From: Candidatus Omnitrophota bacterium
GTDB lineage: Bacteria; Omnitrophota; Gorgyraeia; Pluralincolimonadales; Pluralincolimonadaceae
NCBI GenBank assembly: GCA_041651455.1
Contig: JBAZJG010000001.1
Span: 77,173 to 141,172, forward strand
DNA length: 64,000 nt
Reading direction: 5' to 3'
Below are positions 1 to 47,375 of this stretch, piece by piece. Each line of letters opens with the position of its first letter. Positions within the stretch are counted from its first letter, which is position 1. The translations under genes and the position numbers were made by a program. The notes below the pieces were generated by a model that saw only the letters and a program-made list of their open reading frames with translations, ran no database searches and had not been told where the DNA came from.

Positions 1-3000
1 GCAACTAATGCTTTAGATGATATGAGAACTGCACAAAATTTATTGAAGGAAGTGGAGGAGTTTCTCGGTGTGGGAGTAGTGGCGGTATTGGCAGACGCTG
101 GGGGAGGTAAGACACAAATGTCGGCTCAAATTACTGCGCCTCAAACCGATAGACCTGCTGGTATTCTCCTCCATGGCAGAAATCTCCATAGAGGGCAAAC
201 ACTTAATGACCTTGCACACCATTTTTCCATTAATGGCGTGTCCCTTAACAGTATGGAAAATTTGTTGGCAGCATTGGATGCTGCTGGTAAACGTGCAAGA
301 TGTCGCCTTCCAGTAATAATCGATGGACTTAACGAAGCAGAAAATCCTAGAGACTGGAAAGCACCGTTAGCTAGTCTTGGGGTAACTATGAAACGTTACC
401 CTAATGTTCTGGTGGTTTGCACACTACGTACAGGAGAACGTCGCAGAGATGAACAGCAATGGCAGCCACGACTACAAACAAATAATAGAGAGTCGTTTGC
501 AATTATGGCGCTTCCTGATGAGATGCGAAGAGTCGAGAGTGAAGGGTATGGCGAAGATGTTTATGAAGCTGTCGAGAAATATTTCCGATTTTTTAAAATC
601 AATCCCGGGGATGCCGAGATTCCTTTTGATCTCTTCCAGCATCAGCTTACGTTAAGAATATTTTGTGAAGTTACTAATCCCAGGCAGGAATCTGAAGTAA
701 GAGTTGATTATTTTCAGGCACTCTTGTCGCCACTTTTTGAAAAATATGTCACAAATGCTTGCATCCGTATTTCGGAAATGACTAATCTTAAACGTTCGTA
801 TAGTATTGATGAGTTAAGATCAGTTATCTTTAAACTTGGGGTTGAAATGTGGACCGCCCAACATCGAGAAATTAGCGAAAATCATTTTAGAAATACCGTG
901 TTAGATGCTCCGGATTGGGATAGCAGCGTTGTTAATCTATTCGTGCAAGAGGGGATTATTTTCCGAAATCCGGGAGATACTCCGGATGATTTCTTAATCA
1001 CACCTGCTCATGATGCACTTGGTGGGTATCTAATTGCCAAATCTTTACTTGAGAAGTACCAAAATGACACAACGTTCGAATGGCTTAAGAAACAAGATAC
1101 CATCGCTTTATTTAGCAGTGATAACAGTCATCCGTTAGCAGTGGACATTTTTAAATCGTTAGTTTCACTGACTCCGCGATATTTTCATGGTAGCAATCTC
1201 TGGAGAAAAACTTCAGTCTTTTCTGATGCAGCTTTGAGATTTACAGTAGATATTGAACCAACATACATCGATCAGGATACTACTGAGGCCTTGCTTAAAC
1301 TCTTGAAGGATGAACCTAAGAGGCGAAACTTTCTGTTTTCTCGAATTCGAAGAACTAGAAGTGCTGTCAATCATCCGTTAAATGTCAATTTTCTAGATTC
1401 TGCCCTTAAATTAATGTCTATTAACGAAAGAGATTTAAGTTGGACCGAGTGGATAAGAGAAACTCGAGCGGAGAAATTTAAGGATTTGCTCGCGATGGAG
1501 TTACGTTGGAAGCAAGACTTAAGTATGCGAACTCCAGCAGATCAACTTCGTGCAAAATGGATAATGTGGCTTTTGACTTCTACTGACCACGAACTCCGAG
1601 ACATAGCTACGCGCGCTCTTTATTGGTTCGGACGTGGAAATCCTGAATCACTTTTTGCGGAGAGTTTAAATTCACTTAATATTAATGATCCATACGTTCC
1701 GGAACGAATGCTTGCGGCTAGTTATGGTGTCATGATGGCTAAACAAGTCGATTTGACTAACCAGGCATTTGTAAATACTATTTTGCCTAAATATGCGCGC
1801 AATCTTTACGATTCGATATTTGCAAAGGGCGCATCTTTTAGCACAACTCATCTCTTGATGCGTGAGTATGCAACTAGGGTCATTGAAGTTGCAGTATTAC
1901 ATAATCCGAAACTTTTTAACGCAGAAGAGATCAGGAGAACTCAATCGCCATTCTTGGATGGCGGAATTCGCGAATGGGGAGAGAATACAACTTTGAAGGA
2001 AAGTCACGGGGGAGACTCGCCGTTTCGAATGGATTTCGAAAACTACACGATTGGTAGTTTGGTACGAGAACGCAGTAATTACGACTACAAGCATGAAGGC
2101 TATCAAGAAATACGAGCGAAAATTTTGTGGAGAATCGAGCAACTGGGATGGTCTAGTAATCAATTTAAAAATGTAGATGATTCTATCGCTAGTAGCCAAC
2201 ATTGGGGACGAACAAGTCATGATGCAAAGAAAATTGATCGTTATGGAAAAAAGTATTCTTGGATAGCTTTTTTTGAAATGTCTGGATTCTTGAATGATAA
2301 AAGCATTTTGGAAGATTGGCGAGAACGTACCTCTTCTGTAGACATTGATCCCAGTTTCCCTGAGCGCGTTATTAAGGAACGTTTTATTAAGGCTGATTTC
2401 CTTGGTGATCAGCAAATGGACACGAAAGAGTGGATTGCCAATGGTCCGTTACCAGATGTGGGGCCTTGTTTCCGTGTAGCTAAAGTTCAATCTTTAAAAG
2501 GACCCTGGGTCGCTTTGGATGGATTCGTTGTTCAAGAAGACAAAAAGCGCGGTCGAAGAATATTCTGCTTTATTCGTAGCCTTATCGTTGCTAATCGAGA
2601 TGCTCGATCCATACTAAATTATTTGCGTAAGCAAAACATGGGCGGGCGTTGGTTACCGGAAAAACCATCTGTGATTTATACATTCGCTGGAGAAATACCT
2701 TGGTGCGAGACTTTCCCGAAGAACGGGGCTTGTGAAATGTCATTTGTAACAAAAGAAAAAAAAGTGAAAGTTTTGCAGTCCAATCCGGAGTTATATTTAG
2801 ATGGGAAAAAGTTGGGATTGACTCAAATAGAATTGATCCAACATCGTTTATTCGGAACGATTAATGAAAAAGAGAAAATCTCAAATGACTTAAGTGACGA
2901 AGATATCGAGCGCGTTGAAGTTCGAGAAAGCCAGGTCGAAGTCGAGGAGATAAAAAAAGAATTTAAGAAATTCAATGTTTTAATTCCTGTTTGCGATTTT

Positions 3001-3360
3001 GGATGGGAAGGATATCAAACTGAAGCAAGTGATGCGGGGCATGCTACTACGTTAGCCAAGGAAATAGCTTTTGATTTAGAGTTAATTGGACAACCACAGA
3101 CGTTTGATCTATTTACGAAAGATGGTAAGCGTAGCACGCTTAATGTTTCTGACCAGAGCGGCGATTACAATAATCATCAATCTATGTTTTTTATCCGGGA
3201 AGATTTGCTTAAAACATATCTTAAGAAAAATAATTCTACGATGATTTGGGCAGTTTGGGGAGAACGAGAGTATTCCTATGACCAGCTTGAGAAACTCCGG
3301 AATGATCCAAATCGTCCGGCACAGACATATGCTGTGTATAGTTTCATAAAAAAGTATTGA
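1..3360 (+). CDS. NACHT/STAND-family P-loop NTPase, 5'-truncated. The reading frame is open to the window start with no in-frame stop upstream of the ATG at 22. The product is longer than 1112 aa; the C-terminal repeat/sensor region is unassigned.
   Basis: Walker A ADAGGGKTQ near the visible N-terminus and the NACHT-type Walker B PVIIDGLNEAEN are both present. The protein is large and multidomain, and the segment is strongly AT-rich compared with everything downstream. Confidence 0.5.
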   Translation, partial: ATNALDDMRTAQNLLKEVEEFLGVGVVAVLADAGGGKTQMSAQITAPQTDRPAGILLHGRNLHRGQTLNDLAHHFSINGVSLNSMENLLAALDAAGKRARCRLPVIIDGLNEAENPRDWKAPLASLGVTMKRYPNVLVVCTLRTGERRRDEQQWQPRLQTNNRESFAIMALPDEMRRVESEGYGEDVYEAVEKYFRFFKINPGDAEIPFDLFQHQLTLRIFCEVTNPRQESEVRVDYFQALLSPLFEKYVTNACIRISEMTNLKRSYSIDELRSVIFKLGVEMWTAQHREISENHFRNTVLDAPDWDSSVVNLFVQEGIIFRNPGDTPDDFLITPAHDALGGYLIAKSLLEKYQNDTTFEWLKKQDTIALFSSDNSHPLAVDIFKSLVSLTPRYFHGSNLWRKTSVFSDAALRFTVDIEPTYIDQDTTEALLKLLKDEPKRRNFLFSRIRRTRSAVNHPLNVNFLDSALKLMSINERDLSWTEWIRETRAEKFKDLLAMELRWKQDLSMRTPADQLRAKWIMWLLTSTDHELRDIATRALYWFGRGNPESLFAESLNSLNINDPYVPERMLAASYGVMMAKQVDLTNQAFVNTILPKYARNLYDSIFAKGASFSTTHLLMREYATRVIEVAVLHNPKLFNAEEIRRTQSPFLDGGIREWGENTTLKESHGGDSPFRMDFENYTIGSLVRERSNYDYKHEGYQEIRAKILWRIEQLGWSSNQFKNVDDSIASSQHWGRTSHDAKKIDRYGKKYSWIAFFEMSGFLNDKSILEDWRERTSSVDIDPSFPERVIKERFIKADFLGDQQMDTKEWIANGPLPDVGPCFRVAKVQSLKGPWVALDGFVVQEDKKRGRRIFCFIRSLIVANRDARSILNYLRKQNMGGRWLPEKPSVIYTFAGEIPWCETFPKNGACEMSFVTKEKKVKVLQSNPELYLDGKKLGLTQIELIQHRLFGTINEKEKISNDLSDEDIERVEVRESQVEVEEIKKEFKKFNVLIPVCDFGWEGYQTEASDAGHATTLAKEIAFDLELIGQPQTFDLFTKDGKRSTLNVSDQSGDYNNHQSMFFIREDLLKTYLKKNNSTMIWAVWGEREYSYDQLEKLRNDPNRPAQTYAVYSFIKKY

Positions 3361-3482
3361 TTCTACGGGGAAAACTAAAGGCGCCATTTTTTTATAAAGA
3401 GCCGATGAACGAATAAGATGTTTTGGTCGTTTTTTAACCGAAGGTTATGAAAAACAGAGATGCGCAAAATCATTGAAAACAT

Positions 3483-5519
3483 ATGAACGATAATCAGATA
3501 CAAAGAAATAAAATATTTCTAGTTACCTTCGGCTGCCAGATGAATTTCCGGGATTCGGAGGAGATAGCCGGTTTATTCATGAAGAAGGGGTATGCCCTTG
3601 CGGATTCCCCGGAAGAGGCGGATGTCGCTATATTCAATACCTGCTCGGTCAGGAAGCATGCCGAGGACCGCGCGATAAGCAACATAGGCGAGCTGAAGGC
3701 GCTGAAGAAGAAGCGCCCCGGCATGGTCATAGGCGTAGTCGGTTGCATGGCGAAGGCGCAGGGCGACAAAATAATCGAGAGGCTGCCGATAGTCGATTTT
3801 ATCGCCGGCCCCGCCAACATCTATGATATCCCCGGCATAGCCGAAGGCATACTCGCGGAGAGGAAAGAAGCCGTCATTGCGACGGATAAGAACGCGCGGC
3901 CGTACGTCGGCAACATAGCCTACCATACAAAGGGCATTTCGGCCCTCGTTACGATAATGGAGGGCTGCAATAATTTCTGTTCTTACTGCATCGTGCCATA
4001 CGTAAGGGGGCGCGAGGTCAGCAGGCCGTCCGGCGATGTCATTGAAGAGATCAGGGCGCTCGCGGAGTGCGGCTACAAAGAGGTCACATTGCTTGGGCAG
4101 AACGTGAATTCGTATACGGATTTCACGGGATTGCTCAAAGAGATAAACGGTGTAACGGGCATCGAGCGGATACGGTTCCTGACGAGCCATCCGAAGGATG
4201 CGGGGGAGGATCTCTTCAGGGCGATGCGCGACCTGCCGAAGGTATGTGAGCATCTTCATTTGCCCTTGCAGTCCGGTTCTGATAGAATACTTAAGTCGAT
4301 GAACAGGGGATATACGTCATCTGATTATCTTAAGAAGGTCGAGATGCTGCGCAAACATGTCCCCGATTGCGCGATAACAACAGATGTCATAGTGGGGTAC
4401 CCCGGCGAGTCCGATGAGGATTTCGGGAAGACCAAAAAGCTTATCGAGGATATAGGGTTCAACTCGGCATTCATATTCAAGTATTCGCCGCGGCCTCCGG
4501 CGAAGGCGAGCGGCCTCGAGGATGATGTCCCGAAGAAAACGAAGGAAGAACGCAACCAGGCGCTTCTCAGGCTGCGCGATAAGATATCTGACGCGAAGGA
4601 CAGGGAGTTCGTAGGCAGGCAGACGGAGGTCCTTGTCGAGAGCATATGCAGAAAGGAAAAGCATAAAGTGACGGGCAGGAACAGGCAGAACATAAAGGCG
4701 GTCTTCGAAGGCGGCAGGGAGCTGATAGGGACGCTAAAAAATGTAAAGGTAAGCTCGGTCGTCGGGCATACGCTCGCGGGCGGCGCGCTGATGTTCATGG
4801 TATTATTCGCGGCAGCCGCGGCAGCGGCGCCCGTTTTCGCGGAGACGGTCGAGGAATATTTCGTCGGCGGCGATTACGAGAATACGGTACGAGAAGGCGT
4901 AAAGCAGGTCGGCAATTCAAAGGAACAGGATAAGCTCTATTATATGATAGGCACAAGCCTGAACAAGATCGGCAGGTATGACCTCGCGAGGAAGAACTTC
5001 AACCAGCTCGTGAGCGCATTTCCCCGCAGCAGGTTCTGCCCGCTGGCACAGCTCGGTATCGCGGACAGCTATTACCTTACCGGGGATTATAAGAACGCGT
5101 TCACGGAGTATGAAAAATATATGACGAAATACCCTAACGCCGGGGGCGGCGCGACAGCGTATTTCAGGCTCGCGAAGAGCGCGCAGAAGGAAGGCAAATG
5201 GCAGGCCGCGCGCAACTATTACCAGAAAGTGAAAAGCGAATTCCCGATGAGTTTCGAGGCGCAGATGGCCGCGCAGGCCCTAGGCGATGAGATACTCTTC
5301 TTTACCGTGCAGGTCGGATCCTTCAACAAGAAGTCGAACGCCCTGAAGCTCTGCGATGAGCTTGTGAAAAAAGGGTACGAGGCGTCGATAGTGAAGCCGG
5401 AACAGCCGGGTGAGGGGTCCTACAAGGTCCGCGTAGGAAAGCTCGACGCGAGGGAAGGGGCGGAAGAACTCGCGAAGAGACTGCGCGCCGAGGGCCTGCC
5501 CACCAAAGTCCTGCCTTAA
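3483..5519 (+). CDS. miaB: tRNA-i6A37 methylthiotransferase MiaB. It is fused in-frame, with no stop codon, to a signal-peptide/TPR/SPOR-domain module that begins at ATG 4791.
   Basis: The N-terminal 436 aa have the MTTase N domain, radical-SAM motif CNNFCSYC, and the TRAM ending ...GTLKNVKVSSVVGHTLAGGAL. The next residue starts MFMVLFAAAAAAAPVFA-ETV, a signal-peptide-like stretch with an AxA site. TPR-like repeats follow, then a SPOR-type motif (FTVQVGSF...YKVRVGKL). Confidence 0.85.
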   Translation: MNDNQIQRNKIFLVTFGCQMNFRDSEEIAGLFMKKGYALADSPEEADVAIFNTCSVRKHAEDRAISNIGELKALKKKRPGMVIGVVGCMAKAQGDKIIERLPIVDFIAGPANIYDIPGIAEGILAERKEAVIATDKNARPYVGNIAYHTKGISALVTIMEGCNNFCSYCIVPYVRGREVSRPSGDVIEEIRALAECGYKEVTLLGQNVNSYTDFTGLLKEINGVTGIERIRFLTSHPKDAGEDLFRAMRDLPKVCEHLHLPLQSGSDRILKSMNRGYTSSDYLKKVEMLRKHVPDCAITTDVIVGYPGESDEDFGKTKKLIEDIGFNSAFIFKYSPRPPAKASGLEDDVPKKTKEERNQALLRLRDKISDAKDREFVGRQTEVLVESICRKEKHKVTGRNRQNIKAVFEGGRELIGTLKNVKVSSVVGHTLAGGALMFMVLFAAAAAAAPVFAETVEEYFVGGDYENTVREGVKQVGNSKEQDKLYYMIGTSLNKIGRYDLARKNFNQLVSAFPRSRFCPLAQLGIADSYYLTGDYKNAFTEYEKYMTKYPNAGGGATAYFRLAKSAQKEGKWQAARNYYQKVKSEFPMSFEAQMAAQALGDEILFFTVQVGSFNKKSNALKLCDELVKKGYEASIVKPEQPGEGSYKVRVGKLDAREGAEELAKRLRAEGLPTKVLP

Positions 5520-34479: not shown

Positions 34480-35044
34480 GAAAAAATATTTGGTTCATAG
34501 GTCCTCGTATATAGACAAGGGCGTCAAGATCGGCGCCGGCACGAAGATCTGGCATTTCTGCCACGTGCTGGAGGGCTCCGAAATTGGCCGCGGCTGCAAA
34601 ATAGGGCAGAACGTAGTGATAGGCCCCGACGCGCGGATAGGCGATAATGTAAAGATACAGAATAACGTATCCGTCTACAAAGGGGTGGTCCTCGAGGACG
34701 ACGTCTTCTGCGGGCCGTCATGCGTATTCACGAACGTATTCAATCCGCGAAGCGCGGTCCCGCGCATGGACGAGATAAGGCCGACGCTCGTAAGGAAAGG
34801 CGCCTCGATCGGCGCTAACGCGACGGTCGTCTGCGGGATCACGATAGGAAGGAACGCTTTTATCGGCGCGGGCGCAGTGGTGACGAAAAACGTGCCGGAC
34901 TTCGCTCTGGTATACGGGAATCCGGCCAGGCAACGCGGATGGATATGCGAATGCGGAGAGAAACTGGTGTTCAAGGCAGGGTCTGCACGTTGCAAGTCAT
35001 GCGGTAAGAAGTATTTCAAACGCGGCCTTTTGGTTAGAAAATAA
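34472..35044 (+). CDS. Left-handed beta-helix sugar N-acetyltransferase (WbpD/WlbB-like) with a C-terminal Cys4 zinc ribbon
   Basis: Hexapeptide repeats (IGAGTKIW..., IGRGCKIGQNVVIG..., IGDNVKIQNNVSV) are followed by CECGEK...CKSCGKKY. Confidence 0.75.
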   Translation: MAEKKYLVHRSSYIDKGVKIGAGTKIWHFCHVLEGSEIGRGCKIGQNVVIGPDARIGDNVKIQNNVSVYKGVVLEDDVFCGPSCVFTNVFNPRSAVPRMDEIRPTLVRKGASIGANATVVCGITIGRNAFIGAGAVVTKNVPDFALVYGNPARQRGWICECGEKLVFKAGSARCKSCGKKYFKRGLLVRK

Positions 35045-35065
35045 AAAGAGAGGTATTTCGCGTTA

Positions 35066-35950
35066 ATGCCGAATATTACTAAAAATTGGGATGCAGATAA
35101 TAATGTGGTATCGGAAAAGACATACAGCCGTCCGGTAATCATAATCAGACCGCCATCTGGAGCATTCTATCTGGACTTAAGGGAATTATGGTCATATAGA
35201 GAGCTGGCATTTTTCTTCGTATGGCGCGATATTAAGATAAGGTACAAACAAACGATAATGGGGGCGATGTGGGCAGTATTCCAGCCATTCTTTGCAATGG
35301 TGGTATTCACGGTATTTTTCGGGAAACTTGCGAAGATGCCATCGGATGGTATCCCGTATCCGGTATTCGTATATGTGGGACTTCTCTTGTGGAATTATTT
35401 TGCATTCGGACTTGCGCATGCAAGCAACAGCATGATCAGCAATTCTAATATAATCCAAAAGATCTATTTTCCCAGACTGATAATCCCCCTTGCATCATCC
35501 CTTATAGGATTAATAGATTTTGCGGTCGCCTCGGTAATCCTGGCTATGCTAATGGTATATTATAGTTATGTACCCAATTTTAGCGGTTTGGTATATGTGC
35601 CGTTCTTGTTGCTTATTGCATTTTTTAGTTCTCTGGGTATAGGCAGTATTCTTGCGTCACTGAACGTTAAATACAGGGACGTCCAGTATATAATTCCATT
35701 TTTCATCCAAATGATGATGTTCCTTACCCCCGTGATCTATCCCGCGAGTATTGTAGGAAGCAAGTACCGGTGGATCCTTTCGCTTAATCCGATGACCGCA
35801 GTAATAGAAACGGCCAGGGCCGCGATTTTCGGTAATAGTCGTGTTGATATACACTCACTTTGCATATCAGGCGCAGTTAGCCTCTTCTTATTCATATTCG
35901 GTGTTGTTTATTTCAGGAAAACAGAAAGGTATTTCGCGGACATAATCTAA
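35066..35950 (+). CDS. wzm: ABC-2 type polysaccharide export permease (Wzm)
   Basis: Six TM helices and the motifs LDLRELWSYRELAFFFVWRDIKIRYKQT are present. The GC content drops sharply starting at this gene. Confidence 0.8.
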   Translation: MPNITKNWDADNNVVSEKTYSRPVIIIRPPSGAFYLDLRELWSYRELAFFFVWRDIKIRYKQTIMGAMWAVFQPFFAMVVFTVFFGKLAKMPSDGIPYPVFVYVGLLLWNYFAFGLAHASNSMISNSNIIQKIYFPRLIIPLASSLIGLIDFAVASVILAMLMVYYSYVPNFSGLVYVPFLLLIAFFSSLGIGSILASLNVKYRDVQYIIPFFIQMMMFLTPVIYPASIVGSKYRWILSLNPMTAVIETARAAIFGNSRVDIHSLCISGAVSLFLFIFGVVYFRKTERYFADII

Positions 35951-35954
35951 AAAT

Positions 35955-37238
35955 ATGGAAAATAACATTATTGAGATAAAAGGGGTCTCGAAAAGGTACA
36001 AAATTGGCAGAGGAGACAGATATCTGGCGCTTAGAGACAAGCTCACGTATTTTATGAACCCGTTGAATATGTTCAGGAAGGGAAAACGAAAAAGTCCAGG
36101 CGAAGAATTCTACGCGCTTAAGGATGTTAACCTTAACGTAAGGAAAGGCGAGATAGTCGGTATTATCGGAAGGAACGGTGCCGGTAAGACAACATTGCTT
36201 AAAATTATATCGAGGATTACTTATCCATCCGGGGGTGAGATAAAGATATACGGAAGAGTTGCCAGCCTGCTGGAGGTGGGAACGGGATTCCATCCCGAAT
36301 TGACCGGAAGAGAAAACGTATATTTCAACGGGTCCATCCTCGGGATGAAGAAGAGTGAAATAACCAGGAAGTTTGATGAGATCGTGGCATTTGCGGAGGT
36401 CGAGAAATTCATCGATATGCCGGTTAAGCGGTACTCAAGCGGCATGCAGGTAAGGCTTGCGTTTGCAGTTGCGGCCCATCTCGAACCCGAGATCTTGCTT
36501 ATAGACGAGGTGCTATCGGTAGGAGACATAACGTTCCAGAAGAAAAGCCTCGGGAAGATGGAGAATGTGGCGAGAGAAGGCAGGACCGTTCTTTTTGTTA
36601 GCCATAATATGGGAGCGGTGCAGAGGCTGTGCAACCGCGCCGTTTTGCTGAATAACGGTTTGGTGGTTGAGGACGGCGACGTAAACGAAGTTACGGAAAA
36701 ATATATGAGCTACGGCTTGAATAAGGCCGGGGAAAGGATATGGAGCGAAGAGAACTCCCCCGGAGATGATGTTGTTCGGTTGAGAAGAATTTGTGTAATG
36801 AACGCGAAGGGCGAAATTAAAGTGGAGTTCAATACACACGAAGGGATATTTGTTTCGGTTGAATATGCGGTCTTAAAAAACAACTATCCGTTAAATACTC
36901 TTCTCTATTTCCTCGATGAAGAGGGGATTACGAAATTCGTTTCCATGGATAATCTTGATTCCCCATGGAAGGATACGGTAAGGCCCGCAGGATTATACAG
37001 GTGCACATGTGAAGTCCCTCCTGACCTGTTGAACGAAGGCACTATAAGGATAAATGTAATCGTAACAACGAGCCCGTATAACCTACACGCGAGGGACTCT
37101 GATGTGCTCGTCTTCAAGGTTATAGACGACATGAGCAACAGCGGGGTAAGGGGGAATTACCCGCGTGAATGGCCTGCCGCGGTAGTAAGGCCGAGGCTTA
37201 ACTGGAAAGTGGAGATGTTGAACCATGGAAAAGGATAA
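35955..37238 (+). CDS. wzt: Polysaccharide export ABC transporter ATP-binding protein (Wzt) with a C-terminal glycan-binding domain
   Basis: Walker A GRNGAGKTT, the signature YSSGMQVRLAFA and a Walker B are followed by a C-terminal extension of about 180 aa. Confidence 0.85.
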   Translation: MENNIIEIKGVSKRYKIGRGDRYLALRDKLTYFMNPLNMFRKGKRKSPGEEFYALKDVNLNVRKGEIVGIIGRNGAGKTTLLKIISRITYPSGGEIKIYGRVASLLEVGTGFHPELTGRENVYFNGSILGMKKSEITRKFDEIVAFAEVEKFIDMPVKRYSSGMQVRLAFAVAAHLEPEILLIDEVLSVGDITFQKKSLGKMENVAREGRTVLFVSHNMGAVQRLCNRAVLLNNGLVVEDGDVNEVTEKYMSYGLNKAGERIWSEENSPGDDVVRLRRICVMNAKGEIKVEFNTHEGIFVSVEYAVLKNNYPLNTLLYFLDEEGITKFVSMDNLDSPWKDTVRPAGLYRCTCEVPPDLLNEGTIRINVIVTTSPYNLHARDSDVLVFKVIDDMSNSGVRGNYPREWPAAVVRPRLNWKVEMLNHGKG

Positions 37239-37980
37239 GGACTCTATAATATTGGTCACCTGCGGCGATTCGATAAGTATGCCGCGCTCCTTCGACGGTA
37301 TCCGTTGCGGTCATACTTATTCCGAGATAGTAAAGAAGAGTCTACAGGAAAAATATAAGGATAAAGAGGTATTTCTGTTCAACCGAGCGCTGGGAGGGGA
37401 GAGTATAGCTACCCTTTTCAGGATATTCCAGACCGACATACAGTATTTTGGAAAAGACGGAAGAAAGATACTTATATTGAGCGCAGGAATAGTAGATTGC
37501 GCGCTCAGGCCAATACCTCTTTGGTTGAAAAGAAAGATAGGCGTCATGCCTTCCGTTGTAAGAGAACCGATTATAAAATTCCTGCATAATAATAGAGCCA
37601 GGTTATTCGGATTGGGGCTTAAATGGAGGGTGACGTCTCCCGGAAGGTTCAAGCGCATATACTGCAATATACTTGCTGAAGCCTCCAAAGCATTTTCGAA
37701 AGTGTATGTCTTTACCATTATGCCGACGACTAAAAAGACAGAGAAGCATTCGCCCGGACTTACGTCAAGTATCGACCTCTATAACAGTATAATAAGGGAT
37801 ATAGTGAGCGTGCTTGCTCTCCCTAATATAGAGCTGATCGACATTAATGAGATGATAAACGAGGAAAAATATGACGTTGAAGATGTGGTTAACAATTCAG
37901 ACGGAATCCACCTGACCGTAAAAGGGCACAGAGTATTTGCGGATAAAATACTGGAAAGAGAAAAAAATGAGATCTTGTAA
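37225..37980 (+). CDS. SGNH/GDSL hydrolase family protein (candidate glycan esterase/O-acyltransferase)
   Basis: Block I VTCGDSISM and block V SDGIHLT are present. Confidence 0.6.
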   Translation: MEKDKDSIILVTCGDSISMPRSFDGIRCGHTYSEIVKKSLQEKYKDKEVFLFNRALGGESIATLFRIFQTDIQYFGKDGRKILILSAGIVDCALRPIPLWLKRKIGVMPSVVREPIIKFLHNNRARLFGLGLKWRVTSPGRFKRIYCNILAEASKAFSKVYVFTIMPTTKKTEKHSPGLTSSIDLYNSIIRDIVSVLALPNIELIDINEMINEEKYDVEDVVNNSDGIHLTVKGHRVFADKILEREKNEIL

Positions 37981-38968
37981 AGCCAAGACGATACACGAGA
38001 GATTGACAGGTTTTGACAAGTTCAGCCGTTCCCTGGAACCTCCGTTCCCGAAAGACATGCTTATTGAGCTAACAAACGCATGTAACAATAAATGCCTATT
38101 TTGCGCGAACAGGAAAATGACAAGAAAAACAGGTCATATCAGGATAGGTATTCTGGATAAGGTGTTGTCTCAGGCATATGCTCTCGGGTGCCGGAACGTG
38201 GGTTTTTATACTACCGGCGAACCTTTTATATCAAGCAAACTGCCGCAATGTATCTCAATGGCAAAAAAGAAGGGATTTACGTACATTTATTTGACAACGA
38301 ACGGTGTTCTGGCGACTCCCTCGCGCGTACGAGAAGTGATCGAGGCGGGCCTGGACAGCTTGAAGTTCTCGATAAATGCGGGGACAAGAAAGACGTACAA
38401 AGAGATACATGGTAGGGACGATTTTGACAAAGTAATAGCAAACCTTAAATATGCCTCGGAGTACAGGAAGAAAGTGTCCTCGCCTTTGACCATTCATGTT
38501 TCATACGTGATCACACGAAAAAACGAGAGAGAGCAGAATCGGTTCCGTGAATTGGTAACGCCTTTTGCGGATGACGTGTTCTTCCTGAACGTGAGCAACC
38601 AGGGGGGCATGATGCCCGAGATAAAGAAAGATCTTGTGCCTGAAAATCCGAATAGGAAATTTACGTATTCAAAAAAAGTGCCGTGCAGTATGGTATTCAA
38701 CAGGTTGCATATTACCCACGAAGGGTACGTGTCTGCTTGTTGTGTCGATTTCCAGAATTACTTGATAGTGGCAGACCTTAACAAAGTTGACCTATGGAAA
38801 GCTTGGCGTAGCAGGGTATTTAAGAAAATTAGAAGACTTCATCTGGAGAATATGCTACAAGGGACTCAATGTTATAATTGCGTTTACGACAAGCAGGATA
38901 CGGTCAAGCCTTTGTTGCCTGAATACGCTGCGGCACCAGATAACATGTCAAAAAAAGGAAGGATGTAA
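37967..38968 (+). CDS. Radical SAM / SPASM(twitch)-domain protein
   Basis: The motif CNNKCLFC (Cx3Cx2C) is followed by a C-terminal Cys-rich region CSMVF...SACCVDF...CYNC. Confidence 0.72.
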   Translation: MRSCKAKTIHERLTGFDKFSRSLEPPFPKDMLIELTNACNNKCLFCANRKMTRKTGHIRIGILDKVLSQAYALGCRNVGFYTTGEPFISSKLPQCISMAKKKGFTYIYLTTNGVLATPSRVREVIEAGLDSLKFSINAGTRKTYKEIHGRDDFDKVIANLKYASEYRKKVSSPLTIHVSYVITRKNEREQNRFRELVTPFADDVFFLNVSNQGGMMPEIKKDLVPENPNRKFTYSKKVPCSMVFNRLHITHEGYVSACCVDFQNYLIVADLNKVDLWKAWRSRVFKKIRRLHLENMLQGTQCYNCVYDKQDTVKPLLPEYAAAPDNMSKKGRM

Positions 38969-38969
38969 A

Positions 38970-40304
38970 ATGAATATAGATATTATCATACCTGCCTATT
39001 CGGAAACCGGAAAGGTATATAGGATAAACAGCGTTTTGATCAAGGGCAGGCCAATAATAGATTACACGCTTGAAGCCGCCATTAACGCGCCGTATATCAG
39101 GGGTATATATCTGATAACTGATGACAGCAGCATGCTTGAAAGATACGGATCATTAAAAAAGATAAAGGTGGTCATGCATAAGCATGAGGAAAACGGCGAT
39201 AATATAAGACTTAAGACGATACTGTCAAGCGCGCTTAAAAAGATAAAAGGCGCGCGGCCTGATCTGGCGGTGTTGTTATTAACGTCGGCACCCTTAAGAG
39301 ATGCGGGAATATTAGAATCGGCACTCAATTATGCCAGGTCGTTTGAGGAATATGACAGTATCGTCGGCGTGACAAGGTCGAGGAAATCGAGATTCGGCGT
39401 ATTGAACGTAGGCGCCAATGGGAAGACGGATTATAGCCAGGACAGGACATGTATCAGTTATACGGGCAAGGGGCAGCATTACACCGCCGCGGTAAACGGC
39501 GCACTGTATATCGTGAAGACAAATAGGCTTGGAAAGTTGAACGAAATGCTGTTATCTAGTAGAACCTACGGGTTTGAAATGGACGAAGAGGCAGGTAAGG
39601 ATATAGACTCTTCGGCGGATGTGGCGGTAGCAGAAGCTTTTCTTTCAATGAAAGAGGAACGCTTCGGACAGCATGCAAGGGGAAGGTTTAATGTGCAGCG
39701 CCTTTATATTCATGACGACAGGCAGATGGGGATAAACAGGAATGTCCTTGATGCCATGGCATACGAACGCCATTTTATGAGATATCGGAAATTCTTAAAG
39801 CGCATTTCCGCGTCGGATGACGTACTTGACATTGCATGCGGGAGTGGCTACGGCAGTGAAATATTGGCTTCGAAAGCCAGGTCGGTGACCGGAGTGGATT
39901 GCGACCCGGTCACCATAAAATATGCAGGTCGCCATCATAAGAAAAAAAACATAAATTTCAAAACATCGGCGATTGAAAAATTCAATCCCAAACGAAAGTT
40001 CGACAAAATAATCAGCGTGGAGACGATCGAACACCTTACCGACCCAGAGGGATACATGAAGAAAGCCAGGGGATGGCTCAAGCCCGGAGGACAGATATGG
40101 TTGACATGCCCGCTTTCTGGAATATGTCGGCAGGAAACCGAAAATCCTTTCCATATAAGTGAAATAACGTATGAAATGCTTAAGAGGATAATGAGGAAGT
40201 ATTTTAAGACTACAAGCTTCTATCGACTATCCGGAAAGAAAATATTCTCGGGTGACACCCTGAACAATAAGACGGCGTATATAGTCGCGAAAGGAGCTTT
40301 ATAA
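38970..40304 (+). CDS. Bifunctional fusion of an N-terminal cytidylyltransferase-like nucleotidyltransferase with a C-terminal class I SAM methyltransferase
   Basis: The N-terminus IIIPAYSETGKVYRINSVLIKGRPIIDYTLEAA has an NTP-transferase fold. The C-terminus has MTase motif I VLDIACGSGYGSEILA. The track ORF start at 38787 overlaps the upstream gene and is rejected; the chosen ATG at 38970 has the RBS aaggaagga. Confidence 0.6.
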   Translation: MNIDIIIPAYSETGKVYRINSVLIKGRPIIDYTLEAAINAPYIRGIYLITDDSSMLERYGSLKKIKVVMHKHEENGDNIRLKTILSSALKKIKGARPDLAVLLLTSAPLRDAGILESALNYARSFEEYDSIVGVTRSRKSRFGVLNVGANGKTDYSQDRTCISYTGKGQHYTAAVNGALYIVKTNRLGKLNEMLLSSRTYGFEMDEEAGKDIDSSADVAVAEAFLSMKEERFGQHARGRFNVQRLYIHDDRQMGINRNVLDAMAYERHFMRYRKFLKRISASDDVLDIACGSGYGSEILASKARSVTGVDCDPVTIKYAGRHHKKKNINFKTSAIEKFNPKRKFDKIISVETIEHLTDPEGYMKKARGWLKPGGQIWLTCPLSGICRQETENPFHISEITYEMLKRIMRKYFKTTSFYRLSGKKIFSGDTLNNKTAYIVAKGAL

Positions 40305-41638
40305 TGAAGGATATAGTCAAGTCACCTATACGGACTGACGATAATGATATGGTGCTGTCCTTGCCGATGACTGTACATATCGAACTGACATCTTCGTGTT
40401 GTTTCACATGTAGGCACTGCTATAATTTTTGGAGAAAAGAAAAGATCAACCACGTGTTCATGACAGAGGAAGGCCTCGATAAGATATTGGATGAGCTAAT
40501 AAAGAACGGGGTGATGCATGTGATATTTACCGGGGGAGAGCCTTTCATGAACAGGAAGGTGCTGTTGCGTGGTATCAAAAGGCTGAAAAGCGCCGGTTTA
40601 AGTTCGACATGCAATTCAACACTGGCCGTTTTCAACTCGATAGAAGAACTTAAGGAACTGAAGGAGGCCGGATTAGAGCACATTCTGACATCACTCAACT
40701 CATGCAGCGAAGAGACGAACGATTATCTTGTTACTAAGCGCGGCGCTCAATCTAAGATCATCAAAGGGATGCAGAACGCGATCTCAGCCGGGATACGCAT
40801 AAGCGTGAATATGATTATCTCGGAAAGTAATATAAATGATATTTACAGGACAGGCGAACTTGCAAGCAAGCTTGGAGCGAAGAAATTTTTCGGAACGAGG
40901 GTGGTACCCCATCTTTCCGGAAAGATAGAAGACCAGAAGGAATTTCTTATCTACCAAAAAGAAGCCAGGGTCATACTGGATGAGCTTATAAAGGTTCAGA
41001 ATGATTTTGCTATTCAGGTCGGGACGCTCGTCCCATTCCCATATTGCTTTGTATTCAAGGAGGAAGACAGACAAAAGTATGCCCGGTTCTATTCGCACGG
41101 TTGCCCCGCGGGGAATAAGATGATATCCATAAACGCAAACGGGGAAGCGCACGCCTGCGTCCACGAAAAACAGGGTTATGGGAACATATTGGAGATCGGA
41201 TTGAGGTCTGCCTGGAAGAACATGGAAAAATGGAGGTCCGGCGAGTATTTTCCTTCTGTTTGTAAGGAATGCGAGCTATTTGATGAATGCAATGGAGGCT
41301 GTCGCCTTGCTACTTTGGCATACAAGGGGGATATTTCATCGACTGACAACCTGAGGGTAGGATGGGCAAAAGGGAAAAAGAGAGTTGAAGATTCTGGCGA
41401 GCGGATGATATTGAAAGCAAGATACGCCGTTCCGCAAACCCTACGTTTTAGGAAGGAGAACGGGTTCTCGGTGGTAGACCGTTTTGGATCGGAAGTCCTA
41501 TGTGTGAAGGACAGGATCGCGAAAGTCCTGATGGATCATAAACTAAAGAAAACCGCATTTATCCCAGAAGAAGAAGGCATCTTGGACATAGAGACGTTAA
41601 AAACGCTCATAAATGAAAAACTTCTGGTGAAGGCATAA
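40304..41638 (+). CDS. Radical SAM / SPASM-domain protein
   Basis: The motif CCFTCRHC (Cx3Cx2C) is followed by a C-terminal SPASM-like Cys cluster CVHE...CKECELFDECNGGCR. Confidence 0.72.
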   Translation: MKDIVKSPIRTDDNDMVLSLPMTVHIELTSSCCFTCRHCYNFWRKEKINHVFMTEEGLDKILDELIKNGVMHVIFTGGEPFMNRKVLLRGIKRLKSAGLSSTCNSTLAVFNSIEELKELKEAGLEHILTSLNSCSEETNDYLVTKRGAQSKIIKGMQNAISAGIRISVNMIISESNINDIYRTGELASKLGAKKFFGTRVVPHLSGKIEDQKEFLIYQKEARVILDELIKVQNDFAIQVGTLVPFPYCFVFKEEDRQKYARFYSHGCPAGNKMISINANGEAHACVHEKQGYGNILEIGLRSAWKNMEKWRSGEYFPSVCKECELFDECNGGCRLATLAYKGDISSTDNLRVGWAKGKKRVEDSGERMILKARYAVPQTLRFRKENGFSVVDRFGSEVLCVKDRIAKVLMDHKLKKTAFIPEEEGILDIETLKTLINEKLLVKA

Positions 41639-41655
41639 CAAAAGGATATTCAAGA

Positions 41656-42339
41656 ATGAAGATAAAGCATTATGCCCTCATTCCCGCAAAGAAGGATTCA
41701 AGCCGGTGTAAAAACAAAAACTGGAGGAAATTCAGTAAAAATTGCAACCTTGTTGATTACACCGTAAAGTCGGTACCCGGGAACATGTTTGAGAAAATAA
41801 TTGTATCGACAGATAAAATAGACTACCATCCTCCGCGGCATGTATTGAAACACCTGAGAGACAGGAAATTGTCGAGAAAGGGTTCGTGCGTAAAGGACCT
41901 GATACGAATAATTATACGCGAATACGGATTAAGGGATGAGGACTATCTTTGGCTTCTTAATCCTACTTCGCCGTTTAGGGAAAAAACCGACTTTACTAGA
42001 ATTGCGGATTATATTGGCAGGTATAAGCCGGATTCGGTAATCTCGGTTATAGAAATACACCCATTCATATGGAAAGGGGCCAGCCCTTTGTTTGAGACGA
42101 GAGGGAAACGCAGGAATACGGAGAGTTTTAAGGAAAGGTATTCTGTTGAGAACGGCATGTTCTATGTGATGAATATCGGTTATTTCCGTTCTAAAAGGTC
42201 GTGGTATGGAAAGCGGTCAATGCTGTATAAGCGGCACGGTATCCTGTCGTTTGTGGACATCGATACGGAAGAGGAATTTATAGAAGCAAGAAAACTGACC
42301 GGAATAAAGGACTTCAAAAACCGGGGGAAAAGAGAATGA
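41656..42339 (+). CDS. Acylneuraminate/ulosonate cytidylyltransferase family protein (CMP-sugar synthetase)
   Basis: ALIPAKKDSSRCKNKN and NPTSPFR match the NeuA/KdsB/PseF-type motifs. Confidence 0.68.
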   Translation: MKIKHYALIPAKKDSSRCKNKNWRKFSKNCNLVDYTVKSVPGNMFEKIIVSTDKIDYHPPRHVLKHLRDRKLSRKGSCVKDLIRIIIREYGLRDEDYLWLLNPTSPFREKTDFTRIADYIGRYKPDSVISVIEIHPFIWKGASPLFETRGKRRNTESFKERYSVENGMFYVMNIGYFRSKRSWYGKRSMLYKRHGILSFVDIDTEEEFIEARKLTGIKDFKNRGKRE

Positions 42340-43205
42340 TAAGATTTAAGGACCTGAAGGATGTCTACCTTATAGGAGAAATAGGCATAAACCATAATGG
42401 CGACCTTCAGATTGCAAAGAAACTAATTGACGCTGTATACGCATGCGGATGGAAATGTGTGAAGTTTCAGAAGAGGAATCCGGATGTATGTGTTCCAGAA
42501 AGTCAGAAAAATACAAAGCGTGACACGCCTTGGGGAATGATGACATACCTGGAATACAAGAAACGAACGGAGTTCGGCAGGAAAGAATACGATTATATCG
42601 ACAAATATTGTAGGGAAAAACCGTTGAATTGGACGGCGTCAGTTTGGGATCTAGGCAGCTTTAAATTCATGAAGAAGTACGATCTTCCCTTTATTAAGCT
42701 GCCTTCCGCCAAGATAAATGACATGGAACTGGTAGAGGCTGTTGCGAAGTCCGGGATACCGGTGCTTGCATCGACCGGTATGAGCTCATTGGGCGAAATC
42801 GACAAGCTCGTTAGTATCCTTAGGAAATATTCGTGTGAATTCGCTCTTATGCATACGAATTCAAGCTACCCCACCCCGTTAGAAGAGCTTAACCTGAATT
42901 GCATCGTTACGCTTAGAAAAAGGTATGACTGTGTTATAGGTTATAGCGGCCATGAGTATAACGTGGAACCTACCGTTTACGCGTGCGTTCTGGGAGCCAA
43001 GATAATCGAAAGGCATATAACCCTTGATCATACGATGTGGGGGACAGACCAATCATCAAGCCTTGAAGTGGGCGCCATGTACCTCCTCAATAGAAGAGTG
43101 CAGCATATCGATATGATGCTGGGGAGCGGAATCAAGAAGATAAGTGCAAGCGAAAGAAAAATTATCAATAAGCTGAAGCATAACCTTTGCGAAAGGAGAA
43201 AATAA
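42336..43205 (+). CDS. NeuB-family ulosonic acid (sialic-acid-type) synthase, a short form lacking the SAF domain
   Basis: YLIGEIGINHNGDLQIAKKLID is the NeuB signature; 289 aa. Confidence 0.72.
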   Translation: MIRFKDLKDVYLIGEIGINHNGDLQIAKKLIDAVYACGWKCVKFQKRNPDVCVPESQKNTKRDTPWGMMTYLEYKKRTEFGRKEYDYIDKYCREKPLNWTASVWDLGSFKFMKKYDLPFIKLPSAKINDMELVEAVAKSGIPVLASTGMSSLGEIDKLVSILRKYSCEFALMHTNSSYPTPLEELNLNCIVTLRKRYDCVIGYSGHEYNVEPTVYACVLGAKIIERHITLDHTMWGTDQSSSLEVGAMYLLNRRVQHIDMMLGSGIKKISASERKIINKLKHNLCERRK

Positions 43206-43864
43206 TGTTGGGGCCGGATTTCAATAAACAATACGAATATGAGAACAGTTTCTACCTTACAGCGCCCATTAACAGGATTAGCAAATTTGTCACTCATCTT
43301 GATCTTTTCAGGAGGATTTCCGGATTGTCAGGAGAGATCGTGGAATGCGGCGTATTCAAAGGAGTGTCGCTGTCCAGATTGATTAAATTCAGAGCATTGT
43401 TTGAAAATCCGCAAAGTAGAAAGATAATAGCATTTGATACCTTCGGAGATTTTCCGGAAGCAAAATACAAGGCTGATGTCAAAAAAAGGCGACAATTTAT
43501 CTCAGAAGCAGGAAGCAAAAGCATAAGCAGGGATGAATTGATCTGCATCCTGAAAAAGCTGGATCTCTACCAGAACATCGAGCTCGTGGCAGGCAATATA
43601 TTGAAAACGGTGCCGCGCTACGTTTCAAGGAACAGACATCTGAAGATAGCCTTGCTGCATATAGATGTTGATCTGTATGAAGCGACGGATATATGCCTAA
43701 AGGAACTGTACCCGTTGGTCGTAAAGGGCGGGATAGTGGTATTGGATGATTACGGCGCCTTTCCCGGAGCTAATAAAGCCATTGACGATTATTTTGTGAA
43801 TAAGAAGGTCAGAATTAAAAAATACCCTTATTCCAACGCCATATCATATGTGCAAGTCGATTGA
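43205..43864 (+). CDS. TylF/MycF-family SAM-dependent O-methyltransferase
   Basis: IVECGVFKGVSLSRL and the C-terminal VVLDDYG are present, and the TAATG overlaps the upstream stop. Confidence 0.62.
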   Translation: MLGPDFNKQYEYENSFYLTAPINRISKFVTHLDLFRRISGLSGEIVECGVFKGVSLSRLIKFRALFENPQSRKIIAFDTFGDFPEAKYKADVKKRRQFISEAGSKSISRDELICILKKLDLYQNIELVAGNILKTVPRYVSRNRHLKIALLHIDVDLYEATDICLKELYPLVVKGGIVVLDDYGAFPGANKAIDDYFVNKKVRIKKYPYSNAISYVQVD

Positions 43865-44379
43865 GAAAGGGCGGTGATAAAATGAGAATACATAAGTATT
43901 ACGATCTTAAGAAGGTAAAATTGATAGTATATGATTTCGACGGTGTTTTTACCGATAATAAGGTCATTCTTATGGAAGACGGGAAAGAAGGTGTTATAGT
44001 AAACAGGTCGGATGGGCTTGCGGTATCAATCTTCAAGAAAATGGGTATTCCTCAAATTATATTGTCTACCGAAAGAAATCCCATAGTTAAGGCCAGATCG
44101 AGGAAACTTGGCATACCAGCCTTGACCTGCGTTAACGATAAGAAGAAGGATCTCTCTTCATATTGCAGGAAACTCAATATCCCGCTGCATTCCGTGGCTT
44201 ATATCGGTAATGATATCAACGACTATGAAGCGATGTTATGCGTGGGATTCCCGATAGCGCCGGCGGATGCGAACAGCCGCATAAAAGGCATAGCGGAAAT
44301 AGTAACTAAAACACGAGGCGGGGAAGGAGTTGCCCGAGAGTTACTCGATATATTTACCCGCGGAATGGGAGTATGCTGA
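43861..44379 (+). CDS. HAD-IIIA phosphatase of the KdsC family (ulosonate-phosphate phosphatase)
   Basis: IVYDFDGVFTD and GNDINDYEAM are present; the protein is about 165-172 aa. Confidence 0.7.
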   Translation: MRKGGDKMRIHKYYDLKKVKLIVYDFDGVFTDNKVILMEDGKEGVIVNRSDGLAVSIFKKMGIPQIILSTERNPIVKARSRKLGIPALTCVNDKKKDLSSYCRKLNIPLHSVAYIGNDINDYEAMLCVGFPIAPADANSRIKGIAEIVTKTRGGEGVARELLDIFTRGMGVC

Positions 44380-46193: not shown

Positions 46194-46196
46194 GGA

Positions 46197-47375
46197 ATGC
46201 ATATGAAACGGATTAATGTGCTTGTGGTCGGTGCGGGTATGTATGTTTGCGGAAGGGGTACAGAGACATTCGGGACCATCATCCCGTCGCTGAACGAATC
46301 AAACAAGTCCGGCGCTTTAGGAAAGATCTTTATAGCCGGAAGGAGCATCTCCGGAATAAGGGCCGCGAAAAAGAAGATTGCCTCACTAAATAAGGCTATG
46401 GGGACCGCGCCGGACCTATCTTTCTATGCCGACGTCAAGAACGGTCCAAAAGGTTATATAAGGGCAATACAGGAGATGCCGAGGCCGGCCTGCGCCATTA
46501 TCGCGGTTCCAGACAACATCCATAAGGATGTAGCAGAGGCTGCGTTGTTGAATGGTATGCATGTGCTGGTCGTTAAACCGTTTGTTGAAACGGTAAAGGA
46601 TGCGAAGGATCTCGAGAAGACGAGGAAAGAACAAGGGCTTTACGGGGCGGTGGAATTCCATAAAAGATACGATGATGCCAACCTGAAATTAAGGGATGCC
46701 ATATCACAGGGTGCTATAGGAGACCCGTTATATTTCCTTGCTGAATTCAGCCAAAGAAAGAGCATGCCGGAAAAAGTATTCAGAAGATGGGCGGCTTCTA
46801 CGAATATTTTCCAGTACCTTGGGATCCATTATGTGGATATGGTCCACTTTGTCACCAAGGCAAAACCGGTACGGGCAATGGCTACCGGCCAGTCGTATTG
46901 GCTGAGATCAAAAGGCATTGATACGTATGATGCCGTTGAAGCCGTTACCGAGTGGAAACTGGAGAACGGAAAAAGATTCGTTTCGCATATACTTACCAAC
47001 TGGATAGACCCCGAGAAGACATCGGCCATGTCAGACCAGAAGATAAAGGTCATAGGCACGAAAGGAAGGTTCGAGTCAGATCAAAAGGCCCGCGGAGTTA
47101 CTATGATTACCGATAAGAATGGCATAGAAGAGATAAATCCGTATTTTTGCAGCCAGTACGGTCCATATGGGAATGTGAGATTCCGCGGCTACGGAATAGA
47201 CAGTATAAAGACCTTTCTCAACGATTCTATAGCGATAGAGTACGGCAGCAAAACCATTGAAGAGCTTGAAAGGGAAAGGCCTACTTTCAATAACTCGCTT
47301 ATACCCACAATGGTGCTTGAAGCTGTTAATACAAGCTTGAAATGCAACGGTAAATGGGTTGAGATAGCCAGATGA
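46197..47375 (+). CDS. Putative NAD(P)-binding oxidoreductase (Rossmann N-terminus)
   Basis: INVLVVGAGMYVCGRG resembles a dinucleotide-binding fold; the rest is unassigned. Confidence 0.35.
   Translation: MHMKRINVLVVGAGMYVCGRGTETFGTIIPSLNESNKSGALGKIFIAGRSISGIRAAKKKIASLNKAMGTAPDLSFYADVKNGPKGYIRAIQEMPRPACAIIAVPDNIHKDVAEAALLNGMHVLVVKPFVETVKDAKDLEKTRKEQGLYGAVEFHKRYDDANLKLRDAISQGAIGDPLYFLAEFSQRKSMPEKVFRRWAASTNIFQYLGIHYVDMVHFVTKAKPVRAMATGQSYWLRSKGIDTYDAVEAVTEWKLENGKRFVSHILTNWIDPEKTSAMSDQKIKVIGTKGRFESDQKARGVTMITDKNGIEEINPYFCSQYGPYGNVRFRGYGIDSIKTFLNDSIAIEYGSKTIEELERERPTFNNSLIPTMVLEAVNTSLKCNGKWVEIAR

Follow-up and report, generated by a model that had tools for sequence, protein, structure and literature searches.

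What kind of protein is encoded by the AT-rich gene at the left end of this 64,000-nt stretch of Candidatus Omnitrophota DNA (hereafter, the window), and how did it come to lie against the GC-rich sequence that begins with miaB? A sequence-only reading of the first 3,482 nt had proposed the edge of an island carrying a 5′-truncated, defence-like NACHT/STAND NTPase, with the effector domain lying upstream of the window. Our analysis indicates, with a probability that we put at roughly 0.85, that the window opens with the 3′ portion of avs2 from an AVAST type 2 anti-phage operon of the KpAvs2 kind, and that this operon sits on a low-GC insert of 5,855 bp near the start of miaB. The figure applies jointly to the whole Avs2-operon explanation, including the identification of the encoded protein as an antiviral STAND NTPase of the Avs2 family, KpAvs2-type. 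The system itself has already been described, and the window adds a new example of it.

Family assignment of the truncated gene

Positions 1–3360 of the window (+ strand) form a single reading frame of 1119 codons that is open from base 1 and ends with a TGA stop at 3358–3360. A database search retrieved the corresponding full protein, P0001, which comprises 1416 aa, is 100% identical across the visible part, and is annotated as 'hypothetical protein WC481_00420' in a Candidatus Omnitrophota metagenome-assembled genome (MAG). The visible part begins at residue 298, confirming that the open reading frame (ORF) is 5′-truncated, and represents residues 298–1416, the 3′ three quarters of avs2. This assignment is supported by the open ORF, the identity to P0001, the identity to ENA contig L001, and the matches to Avs2 hidden Markov models (HMMs). 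L001 is identical to the window over 3674/3674 overlapping nt, with window base 1 corresponding to L001 10892, and places the avs2 start 891 nt upstream of the window, at L001 10001.

HMM and PADLOC searches with this protein matched only Avs2 models. Specifically, PADLOC model PDLC02164 (Avs2) matches the visible part at E=3.4e-89 and the full protein at E=4e-102 (341 bits), profile positions 2–967 being aligned to P0001 residues 2–964, and all six PADLOC matches of the full protein are to Avs2 models. The sole NCBIfam match is likewise Avs2 (NF041813, E=1e-81). In a search of the PDB, Avs2 was the only significant sequence match: a family profile built from 16 sequences matches the solved EcAvs2 chain 9o4e_A at E=3e-44. 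The match consists of two stretches, profile 329–986 against EcAvs2 343–989 and profile 1002–1207 against EcAvs2 1099–1326, and extends over the ATPase and the TPR region and part of the way through the C-terminal sensor. The proposal of an antiviral STAND (Avs-like) protein is therefore well supported by the PADLOC matches and by the EcAvs2 (PDB 9O4E) profile match.

The label NACHT fared less well. No Pfam family matches the visible protein at E<=1 or the full protein at E<=0.1, so that NACHT, AAA_16 and Mrr_cat assignments are not possible by Pfam. We also considered and set aside the label NACHT/bNACHT (PF05729), as the DGLNE Walker B is a resemblance only. The safe label is STAND/NLR-like.

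Gene context and operon conservation

Extension of the sequence upstream, through L001, recovered the N-terminal domain of P0001 and two neighbouring genes, and reveals that avs2 is not solitary but closes a conserved operon of three genes. The first upstream gene, avap1 (L001 8692–9603), is on the same strand and encodes a 303-aa radical-SAM protein that has the cluster motif CDLVCPYC and matches PF04055 (radical SAM) at 54 bits (cut-off 29.5). The second, avap2 (L001 9603–9998), is on the same strand and encodes a 131-aa DUF6375 protein that matches PF19902 (DUF6375) over its full length at 141.5 bits (cut-off 27.5). The avap1 stop overlaps the avap2 start at 9603, and avap2 ends 2 nt before the avs2 ATG. 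Radical SAM, DUF6375 and Avs2 genes in identical order and on the same strand make up the operon of Klebsiella pneumoniae S_15PV, in which KpAvs2 is encoded by the third gene, together with Avap1 (radical SAM) and Avap2 (DUF6375) (Béchon et al., Nat Commun 2024, PMC11564622).

We fetched 80 related genomic loci for gene-order comparison. In every one of the 80, avap1, avap2 and avs2 follow each other directly in this order on one strand, the single locus without a detected avap1 being cut by its contig end, and three further metagenomic loci have the same three-gene arrangement. The radical-SAM CxxxCxxC motif is kept in 79/81 Avap1 copies; the other two are truncated ORFs. The operon is found across many distant phyla, including archaea, and Avs2 relatives at 56–68% identity occur in Scalindua, Methanothrix (archaea), cyanobacteria, Nitrospirota, Verrucomicrobiota and Planctomycetota. 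The locus described here extends the Avap1-Avap2-Avs2 operon to Candidatus Omnitrophota, and the invariance of the three-gene unit across very distant phyla, archaea among them, argues that the radical-SAM and DUF6375 partners are integral to this Avs2 lineage. The GC content of the operon is more than 0.03 below that of its flanks in 36/76 loci, which, together with the presence of relatives in distant phyla, fits frequent horizontal transfer. A scan of viral contigs found only 2 relatives and gives no support to the idea that the operon is typically phage-borne.

Several of these loci link P0001 to the experimentally studied system. Two of them, L032 (Nitrospirae JdFR-85) and L052 (Syntrophobacterales Delta_02), belong to genomes named as carrying KpAvs2-operon homologues (PMC11564622). 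A third, L071 (Pseudocitrobacter cyperus), encodes a protein of 1352 aa with K71 and K337; its length and lysines match the positions mutated in KpAvs2 and the length implied by the published 1066–1352 deletion. P0001 aligns with the L071 protein end to end, with identities of 40, 41, 31 and 29% in the N-terminal, NTPase, middle and C-terminal parts, respectively. It is thus homologous over its whole length to the KpAvs2-like protein of L071, and the PADLOC and NCBIfam scores of the two behave alike. It differs from KpAvs2 in sequence (29–41% identity by domain, via L071) and in length (1416 versus 1352 aa, with extra sequence in the C-terminal sensor). It also differs in its host, a Candidatus Omnitrophota MAG rather than an enterobacterium, and in its setting, since the cassette is a solitary insert in miaB and not within a multi-system defence island.

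A radical-SAM partner might point to a different division of labour, in which Avap1 would provide a viperin-like nucleotide-analogue defence and the STAND protein would be a regulator only. Avap1 indeed gives partial matches to PADLOC pVip (E=2e-20) and to NCBIfam viperin_w_prok (E=1e-14). However, these matches are confined to the generic radical-SAM core, residues 45–187 for PADLOC pVip and 45–185 for viperin_w_prok, the viperin_w_prok score is 54 bits against a cut-off of 180 bits, and MoaA and SPASM maturases score similarly. Furthermore, no viperin-type nucleotides and no nucleoside triphosphate (NTP) pocket were found for Avap1 of the KpAvs2 operon, which is required against some phages only and is dispensable against SECphi18, where the Avs2 nuclease is essential (PMC11564622). 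With a core-only match below cut-off and the literature evidence opposed, we rejected Avap1 as a prokaryotic viperin (pVip) and regard a viperin-like defence as highly improbable.

Four of the related loci have features of their own. In L005 and L029 (Methanothrix/Methanotrichaceae MAGs), the same operon encodes an Avs2 that shares 62–64% identity with the Omnitrophota protein, more than most bacterial copies do; this similarity points to recent inter-domain transfer, provided that the MAG binning is right. In L040 (7001–13017; Altericista sp. CCNU0014), the avs2 homologue occupies 6,017 nt, compared with about 4,260, and is split into two ORFs, suggesting a ~1.8-kb insertion inside the gene, for example an insertion sequence element or an intron. 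In the metagenomic locus L090 (800–5700 and 15100–18500), the genes around the operon encode a HicA toxin, a helix-turn-helix protein, a DUF3987 (primase-like) protein and two caspase-like Peptidase_C14 proteins, one with ankyrin repeats. Such surroundings are those expected of a mobile element or a defence island and contrast with the solitary insert described here.

Domain architecture

The sequence-only reading had placed a Walker A motif, GGGKT, and a Walker B motif of the form hhhhDGLNE near the visible N-terminus, and both are found there. Walker A (window 100–114, + strand) corresponds to visible aa 34–38; its lysine, K334 in full-length numbering, is the counterpart of K337 in KpAvs2. 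Walker B, PVIIDGLNE (window 310–336, + strand), corresponds to visible aa 104–112 and includes D405. Neither motif varies in alignments of 16 and 38 sequences, the invariant residues being G331, G333 and K334 in Walker A, and I404, D405, G406, L407 and E409 in Walker B. The equivalent Walker A of the L071 protein is GEGK337S. The motifs lie in a STAND NTPase module (window 73–1056, + strand) composed of a nucleotide-binding α/β domain (visible aa 25–180) followed by helical and winged-helix subdomains (aa 187–352).

We modelled the visible 1119 aa with AlphaFold2 (AF2), obtaining a mean predicted local distance difference test (pLDDT) score of 75. Downstream of the NTPase module, the model contains an α-helical, TPR-like repeat sensor part of ~290 aa (window 1078–1941, + strand; visible aa 360–647), which is all-helical with block pLDDT ~75–94. 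It is followed by a C-terminal sensor domain of ~420 aa (window 2095–3357, + strand; visible aa 699–1119), which begins with helices and becomes rich in β-strands from aa 825, over its last ~300 aa; the linker between the repeats and the C-terminal domain is poorly modelled. More than 900 aa of helical-repeat sensor had been expected after the NTPase. The helical repeats are present over ~290 aa, but the β-rich C-terminal domain means that the region after the NTPase is not purely helical repeats. A Foldseek search with the AF2 model of the visible protein returned as top matches Avs3 (8DGC, 3e-8), NLRC4, NLRP5 and SAMD9.

The N-terminal part, upstream of the window, was modelled separately (residues 1–341, pLDDT 76) and contains an α/β core (residues 36–134) and a helical bundle (residues 189–329). 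Foldseek matched this model to EcAvs4 (8dgf_B, E=7e-4), MspJI (1e-2), NucS/EndoMS, Card1/Cdn1 and SPARDA, so that its best structural matches are all PD-(D/E)xK nucleases. In addition, E48 and Q69-C70-K71, a QxK motif, are invariant in the family. The N-terminal effector is thus predicted, with fold- and motif-level support, to be a PD-(D/E)xK, Mrr-like nuclease domain, in agreement with the proposal that an effector lies upstream of the window; an Mrr-like dsDNA nuclease is the effector of most Avs2 proteins.

The resulting order of domains, an Mrr-like nuclease with QxK71, a helical bundle, a STAND NTPase and a long C-terminal sensor, is that of KpAvs2, whose defence is abolished by the nuclease mutation K71A, by the Walker A mutation K337A and by deletion of 1066–1352 (PMC11564622). 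P0001 also resembles EcAvs2 (PDB 9O4E, a terminase-bound tetramer; Nat Commun 2026, PMC13601566), in which the ATPase is followed by an 'elaborate α-helical TPR domain' and a 'C-terminal β-strand-rich' sensor (PMC13601566). The two share the STAND ATPase, the TPR-like helical domain and the β-rich C-terminal sensor, and their predicted secondary-structure order is the same. The N-terminal effector of EcAvs2, by contrast, is of another, non-enzymatic kind, and EcAvs2 lacks Avap partners.

A more distant resemblance is to SeAvs3 and EcAvs4 (PDB 8DGC and 8DGF), which Gao et al. reportedly described in 2022 as NLR-like STAND sensors whose nucleases are activated by tetramerisation. These proteins combine a STAND NTPase with an N-terminal PD-(D/E)xK-type nuclease, as P0001 is predicted to do, and they are the best structural matches of both AF2 models; their sensor domains and sequence families are different.

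Proposed mechanism

A mechanism for the Omnitrophota system can be carried over by homology to KpAvs2 and EcAvs2, and on this analogy the trigger, oligomerisation, nuclease activity and defence phenotype would be as follows. Resting Avs2 would be a monomer, with Avap2 bound at the helical bundle between nuclease and NTPase, as in KpAvs2, where Avap2 binds the corresponding bundle and protection against SECphi18 is seen only with Avap2 (PMC11564622). During infection, the TPR-like repeats and the C-terminal sensor would bind a phage protein directly, either the large terminase or small proteins like Ksap1 and Ksap2; the triggers of KpAvs2 are, depending on the phage, the large terminase, Ksap1 or Ksap2 (PMC11564622). 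The ATP-bound NTPase domains would then tetramerise and bring the N-terminal Mrr-like nuclease domains together, and the assembled nuclease domains may degrade DNA indiscriminately and so abort the infection. KpAvs2 defence is likewise abortive and involves DNA degradation (PMC11564622). Avap1 might widen the phage range by a radical-SAM reaction of unspecified kind.

The trigger is the least certain of these steps. Because the C-terminal sensor has diverged from the KpAvs2 type and the distal ~200 aa have no alignment to EcAvs2, it is not transferable with confidence. A protein of the Avs2 lineage with the same nuclease output could respond to something other than a terminase, be it another phage protein or a signal from the host or a prey cell. 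Attachment to other cells has been proposed as the lifestyle of some Omnitrophota. Both the divergence of the sensor (29% identity, ~70 aa longer) with its unaligned distal part and the use of Ksap1 and Ksap2 by KpAvs2 itself (PMC11564622) would fit such a trigger. Against it, every characterised Avs2 responds to large terminases in co-expression (PMC13601566), and the 56–68% identical relatives in cyanobacteria, Planctomycetota, Nitrospirota and archaea argue for a general phage target, not a lifestyle-specific one. We therefore consider a non-terminase trigger unlikely, although it is the most plausible of the alternatives weighed here.

Several points weigh against the assignment of P0001 to a KpAvs2-type defence operon as a whole. 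The matches of the N-terminal model to nuclease folds are modest (E=7e-4 and 1e-2; template modelling scores 0.2–0.3), and Mrr_cat of Pfam gives no match. Compared with the KpAvs2 type, the C-terminal sensor reaches only 29% identity and has ~70 additional aa, and no alignment to EcAvs2 is obtained for the final ~200 aa of P0001. The function proposed for P0001 would follow from homology to KpAvs2/EcAvs2, and the roles of Avap1 and Avap2 are poorly understood even in the KpAvs2 model system. Finally, P0001 scores 275 bits with NF041813 and does not reach its equivalog cut-off of 1000 bits. The KpAvs2-like proteins of L071 (280 bits) and L032 (306 bits) are likewise below this cut-off, and their PDLC02164 scores, 394 and 428 bits, compare with 341 bits for P0001. 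The NF041813 cut-off delimits an EcAvs2-like core, without the experimentally validated KpAvs2 subfamily, and this explains the deposited annotation as 'hypothetical protein'. For annotation, the value of the KpAvs2-type assignment is that a gene so deposited can be given a family with good confidence; it leaves current understanding of Avs systems unchanged, and the finding will not surprise a specialist.

Insertion into miaB

The first ~3.4 kb of the window had been described as AT-rich, and its composition bears this out. The GC content of positions 1–3482 is 0.404, versus 0.525 for 3483–64000. The other 3.48-kb windows have a mean of 0.525, a standard deviation of 0.042 and a minimum of 0.428, so that positions 1–3482 are the lowest such stretch in the window, ~2.9 standard deviations below the mean. 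GC content at third codon positions (GC3) is 0.34 for avs2 (0.29–0.34 for the operon genes) versus about 0.70 for native genes (0.68–0.73; miaB, miaA and hflX, 0.69–0.73), and the change at the boundary between the left end and miaB is abrupt.

A relative that lacks the insert, contig L083, defines its ends. The MiaB of L083 (P0122) is 86% identical to that of the window, and VIT1, an amino-acid permease, a methyltransferase, miaB and miaA follow each other in direct succession, the miaB start overlapping the methyltransferase stop. The left end of L001 is colinear with L083 through the methyltransferase stop, the ATG and the codons MKKEDKYIFIRTFG, as far as ACCTTCGGCTG, and then diverges; the right end is unrelated to L083 up to ACCTTCGGCTG (window 3525–3535) and is colinear again from there. 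Alignment to this empty site gives an insert of 5,855 bp with a GC content of 0.397. The segment is horizontally acquired, as the empty site in L083 and the un-ameliorated composition demonstrate, and the proposed island edge with its sharp GC boundary corresponds to the right end of this insert.

The junctions are exact. The insert is flanked by a perfect 11-nt direct repeat (family D3), which lies inside the T-F-G-C codons of MiaB (miaB codons 15–18). Its right copy, ACCTTCGGCTG, occupies window 3525–3535 (L001 14416–14426) and forms the right junction, and its left copy lies at L001 8561–8571. The original miaB start survives at the left junction, 2.3 kb upstream of the window, as a 14-codon remnant that ends in a stop (L001 8528–8572); this remnant, MKKEDKYIFIRTFG, whose ATG overlaps the methyltransferase stop, matches the intact MiaB start of the empty-site relative, MKKDKKTLFIRTFGCQMN. 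At the right junction, the insert supplies a surrogate miaB 5′ end (window 3483–3524, + strand; codons 1–14, MNDNQIQRNKIFLV), which is AT-rich, is not colinear with the empty site, and restores miaB in frame. The miaB gene itself (window 3483–5519, + strand) is the insertion target and stands outside the defence system; it is native from 3525. A switch of composition within the 122-nt gap before miaB, as had been suggested, does not hold: the first 14 codons of miaB are AT-rich insert DNA, and the true junction is therefore not in the gap but 43–53 nt within the miaB ORF, at window 3525–3535. The spacer between avs2 and miaB (window 3361–3482) is non-coding, AT-rich and part of the insert, and has no counterpart in L083.

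The insert consists of the three genes and ~120 nt of non-coding DNA on each side. A tRNA or an integrase had been suggested as something to look for at the far island boundary. Of the marks of an integrase-mediated genomic island, the 11-nt direct repeats are present, whereas no integrase, excisionase or other mobility gene is found among the called genes of the insert and no tRNA is found in L001. The non-coding ends have no similarity to other copies of the operon, and miaB adjoins the operon in 0/80 related loci; we accordingly rejected a conserved mobile element with defined ends. We also rejected the upstream methyltransferase, which has intermediate GC, as part of the island: it has the same place and similar GC (~0.44–0.49) in L083 and is therefore native. 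Scans for promoters and terminators yielded no excess of sites over shuffled sequence, and we set them aside.

The arrangement resembles that of e14 and phage 21 in E. coli icd, integrative elements that insert in the end of a conserved gene and carry a replacement end. As in elements of that type, a short direct repeat lies within a conserved coding sequence, a remnant of the displaced gene end persists, and an in-frame substitute is supplied. Unlike them, the 5.9-kb insert has no integrase, excisionase or mobility gene, its non-coding ends are not conserved in other operon copies, and no other Avs2 locus adjoins miaB. The cassette might be a discrete integrase-less mobile unit that targets the conserved TFGCQMN-coding miaB start, carries a substitute 5′ end, and is mobilised in trans or by short-homology recombination, but we hold this to be doubtful. 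If true, the region upstream of miaB would be a hot spot in this Omnitrophota group, and such a unit would give single defence operons an unusual means of moving between lineages. In any case, the empty site, the 11-nt repeat and the displaced and replaced start of miaB make this insertion a small, clear-cut case of a single defence operon being acquired.

Related Omnitrophota have other DNA at this position. In L084 (1800–2700) and L085 (7200–8650), low-GC DNA (GC 0.32–0.46; Methyltransf_24 and small ORFs of unknown function) lies directly upstream of miaB, and the AT-rich miaB start of L085, MNDRIVIKNKIFLK, resembles the surrogate start in the window. The miaB 5′ end may be a recurrent exchange point, or hot spot, in related Omnitrophota.

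Two assemblies break at or near the ends of the insert. Logan contig L002 spans it almost exactly (L001 8604–14454), and the ENA contig stops 139 nt beyond the right junction. The population could be polymorphic for the insert, or coverage or GC effects on assembly could be responsible.

An insert of this kind could be the non-functional relic of a cassette that was acquired horizontally, is now decaying and gives its host no further protection. The absence of mobility genes, the pseudogenised miaB fragment at the left junction, the un-ameliorated composition and the two assembly breaks, which could reflect an island present in part of the population only, are compatible with decay. Yet none of the three ORFs is truncated, each can be aligned with its homologues from end to end, the catalytic residues and the radical-SAM cysteines are intact, the gene ends are still translationally coupled, and miaB is restored in frame by the surrogate 5′ end. 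We thus judge decay improbable and favour an intact Avs2 operon.

Other features of the window

A second low-GC region (GC 0.41–0.46) lies at window 35000–47400. Its genes, at 35–47 kb, encode an ABC-2 exporter pair, a GDSL hydrolase, two radical-SAM enzymes, methyltransferases, a cytidylyltransferase, NeuB and an oxidoreductase, and the region is a surface polysaccharide/nonulosonic-acid cluster. Low GC alone is therefore neither unique in the window nor specific to the defence insert.

The product of the window's miaB is a 678-aa MiaB-TPR-SPOR fusion. In Pfam searches, it contains the methylthiotransferase core of MiaB (UPF0004 and Radical_SAM), followed by TPR repeats and a C-terminal SPOR (peptidoglycan-binding) domain, and no TRAM domain was detected by Pfam. 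Orthologues at 75–86% identity are present in other Omnitrophota, and the MiaB-TPR-SPOR fusion is conserved at 60–86% identity in an Omnitrophota subgroup, whereas the MiaB proteins of other Omnitrophota comprise ~440 aa and contain TRAM.

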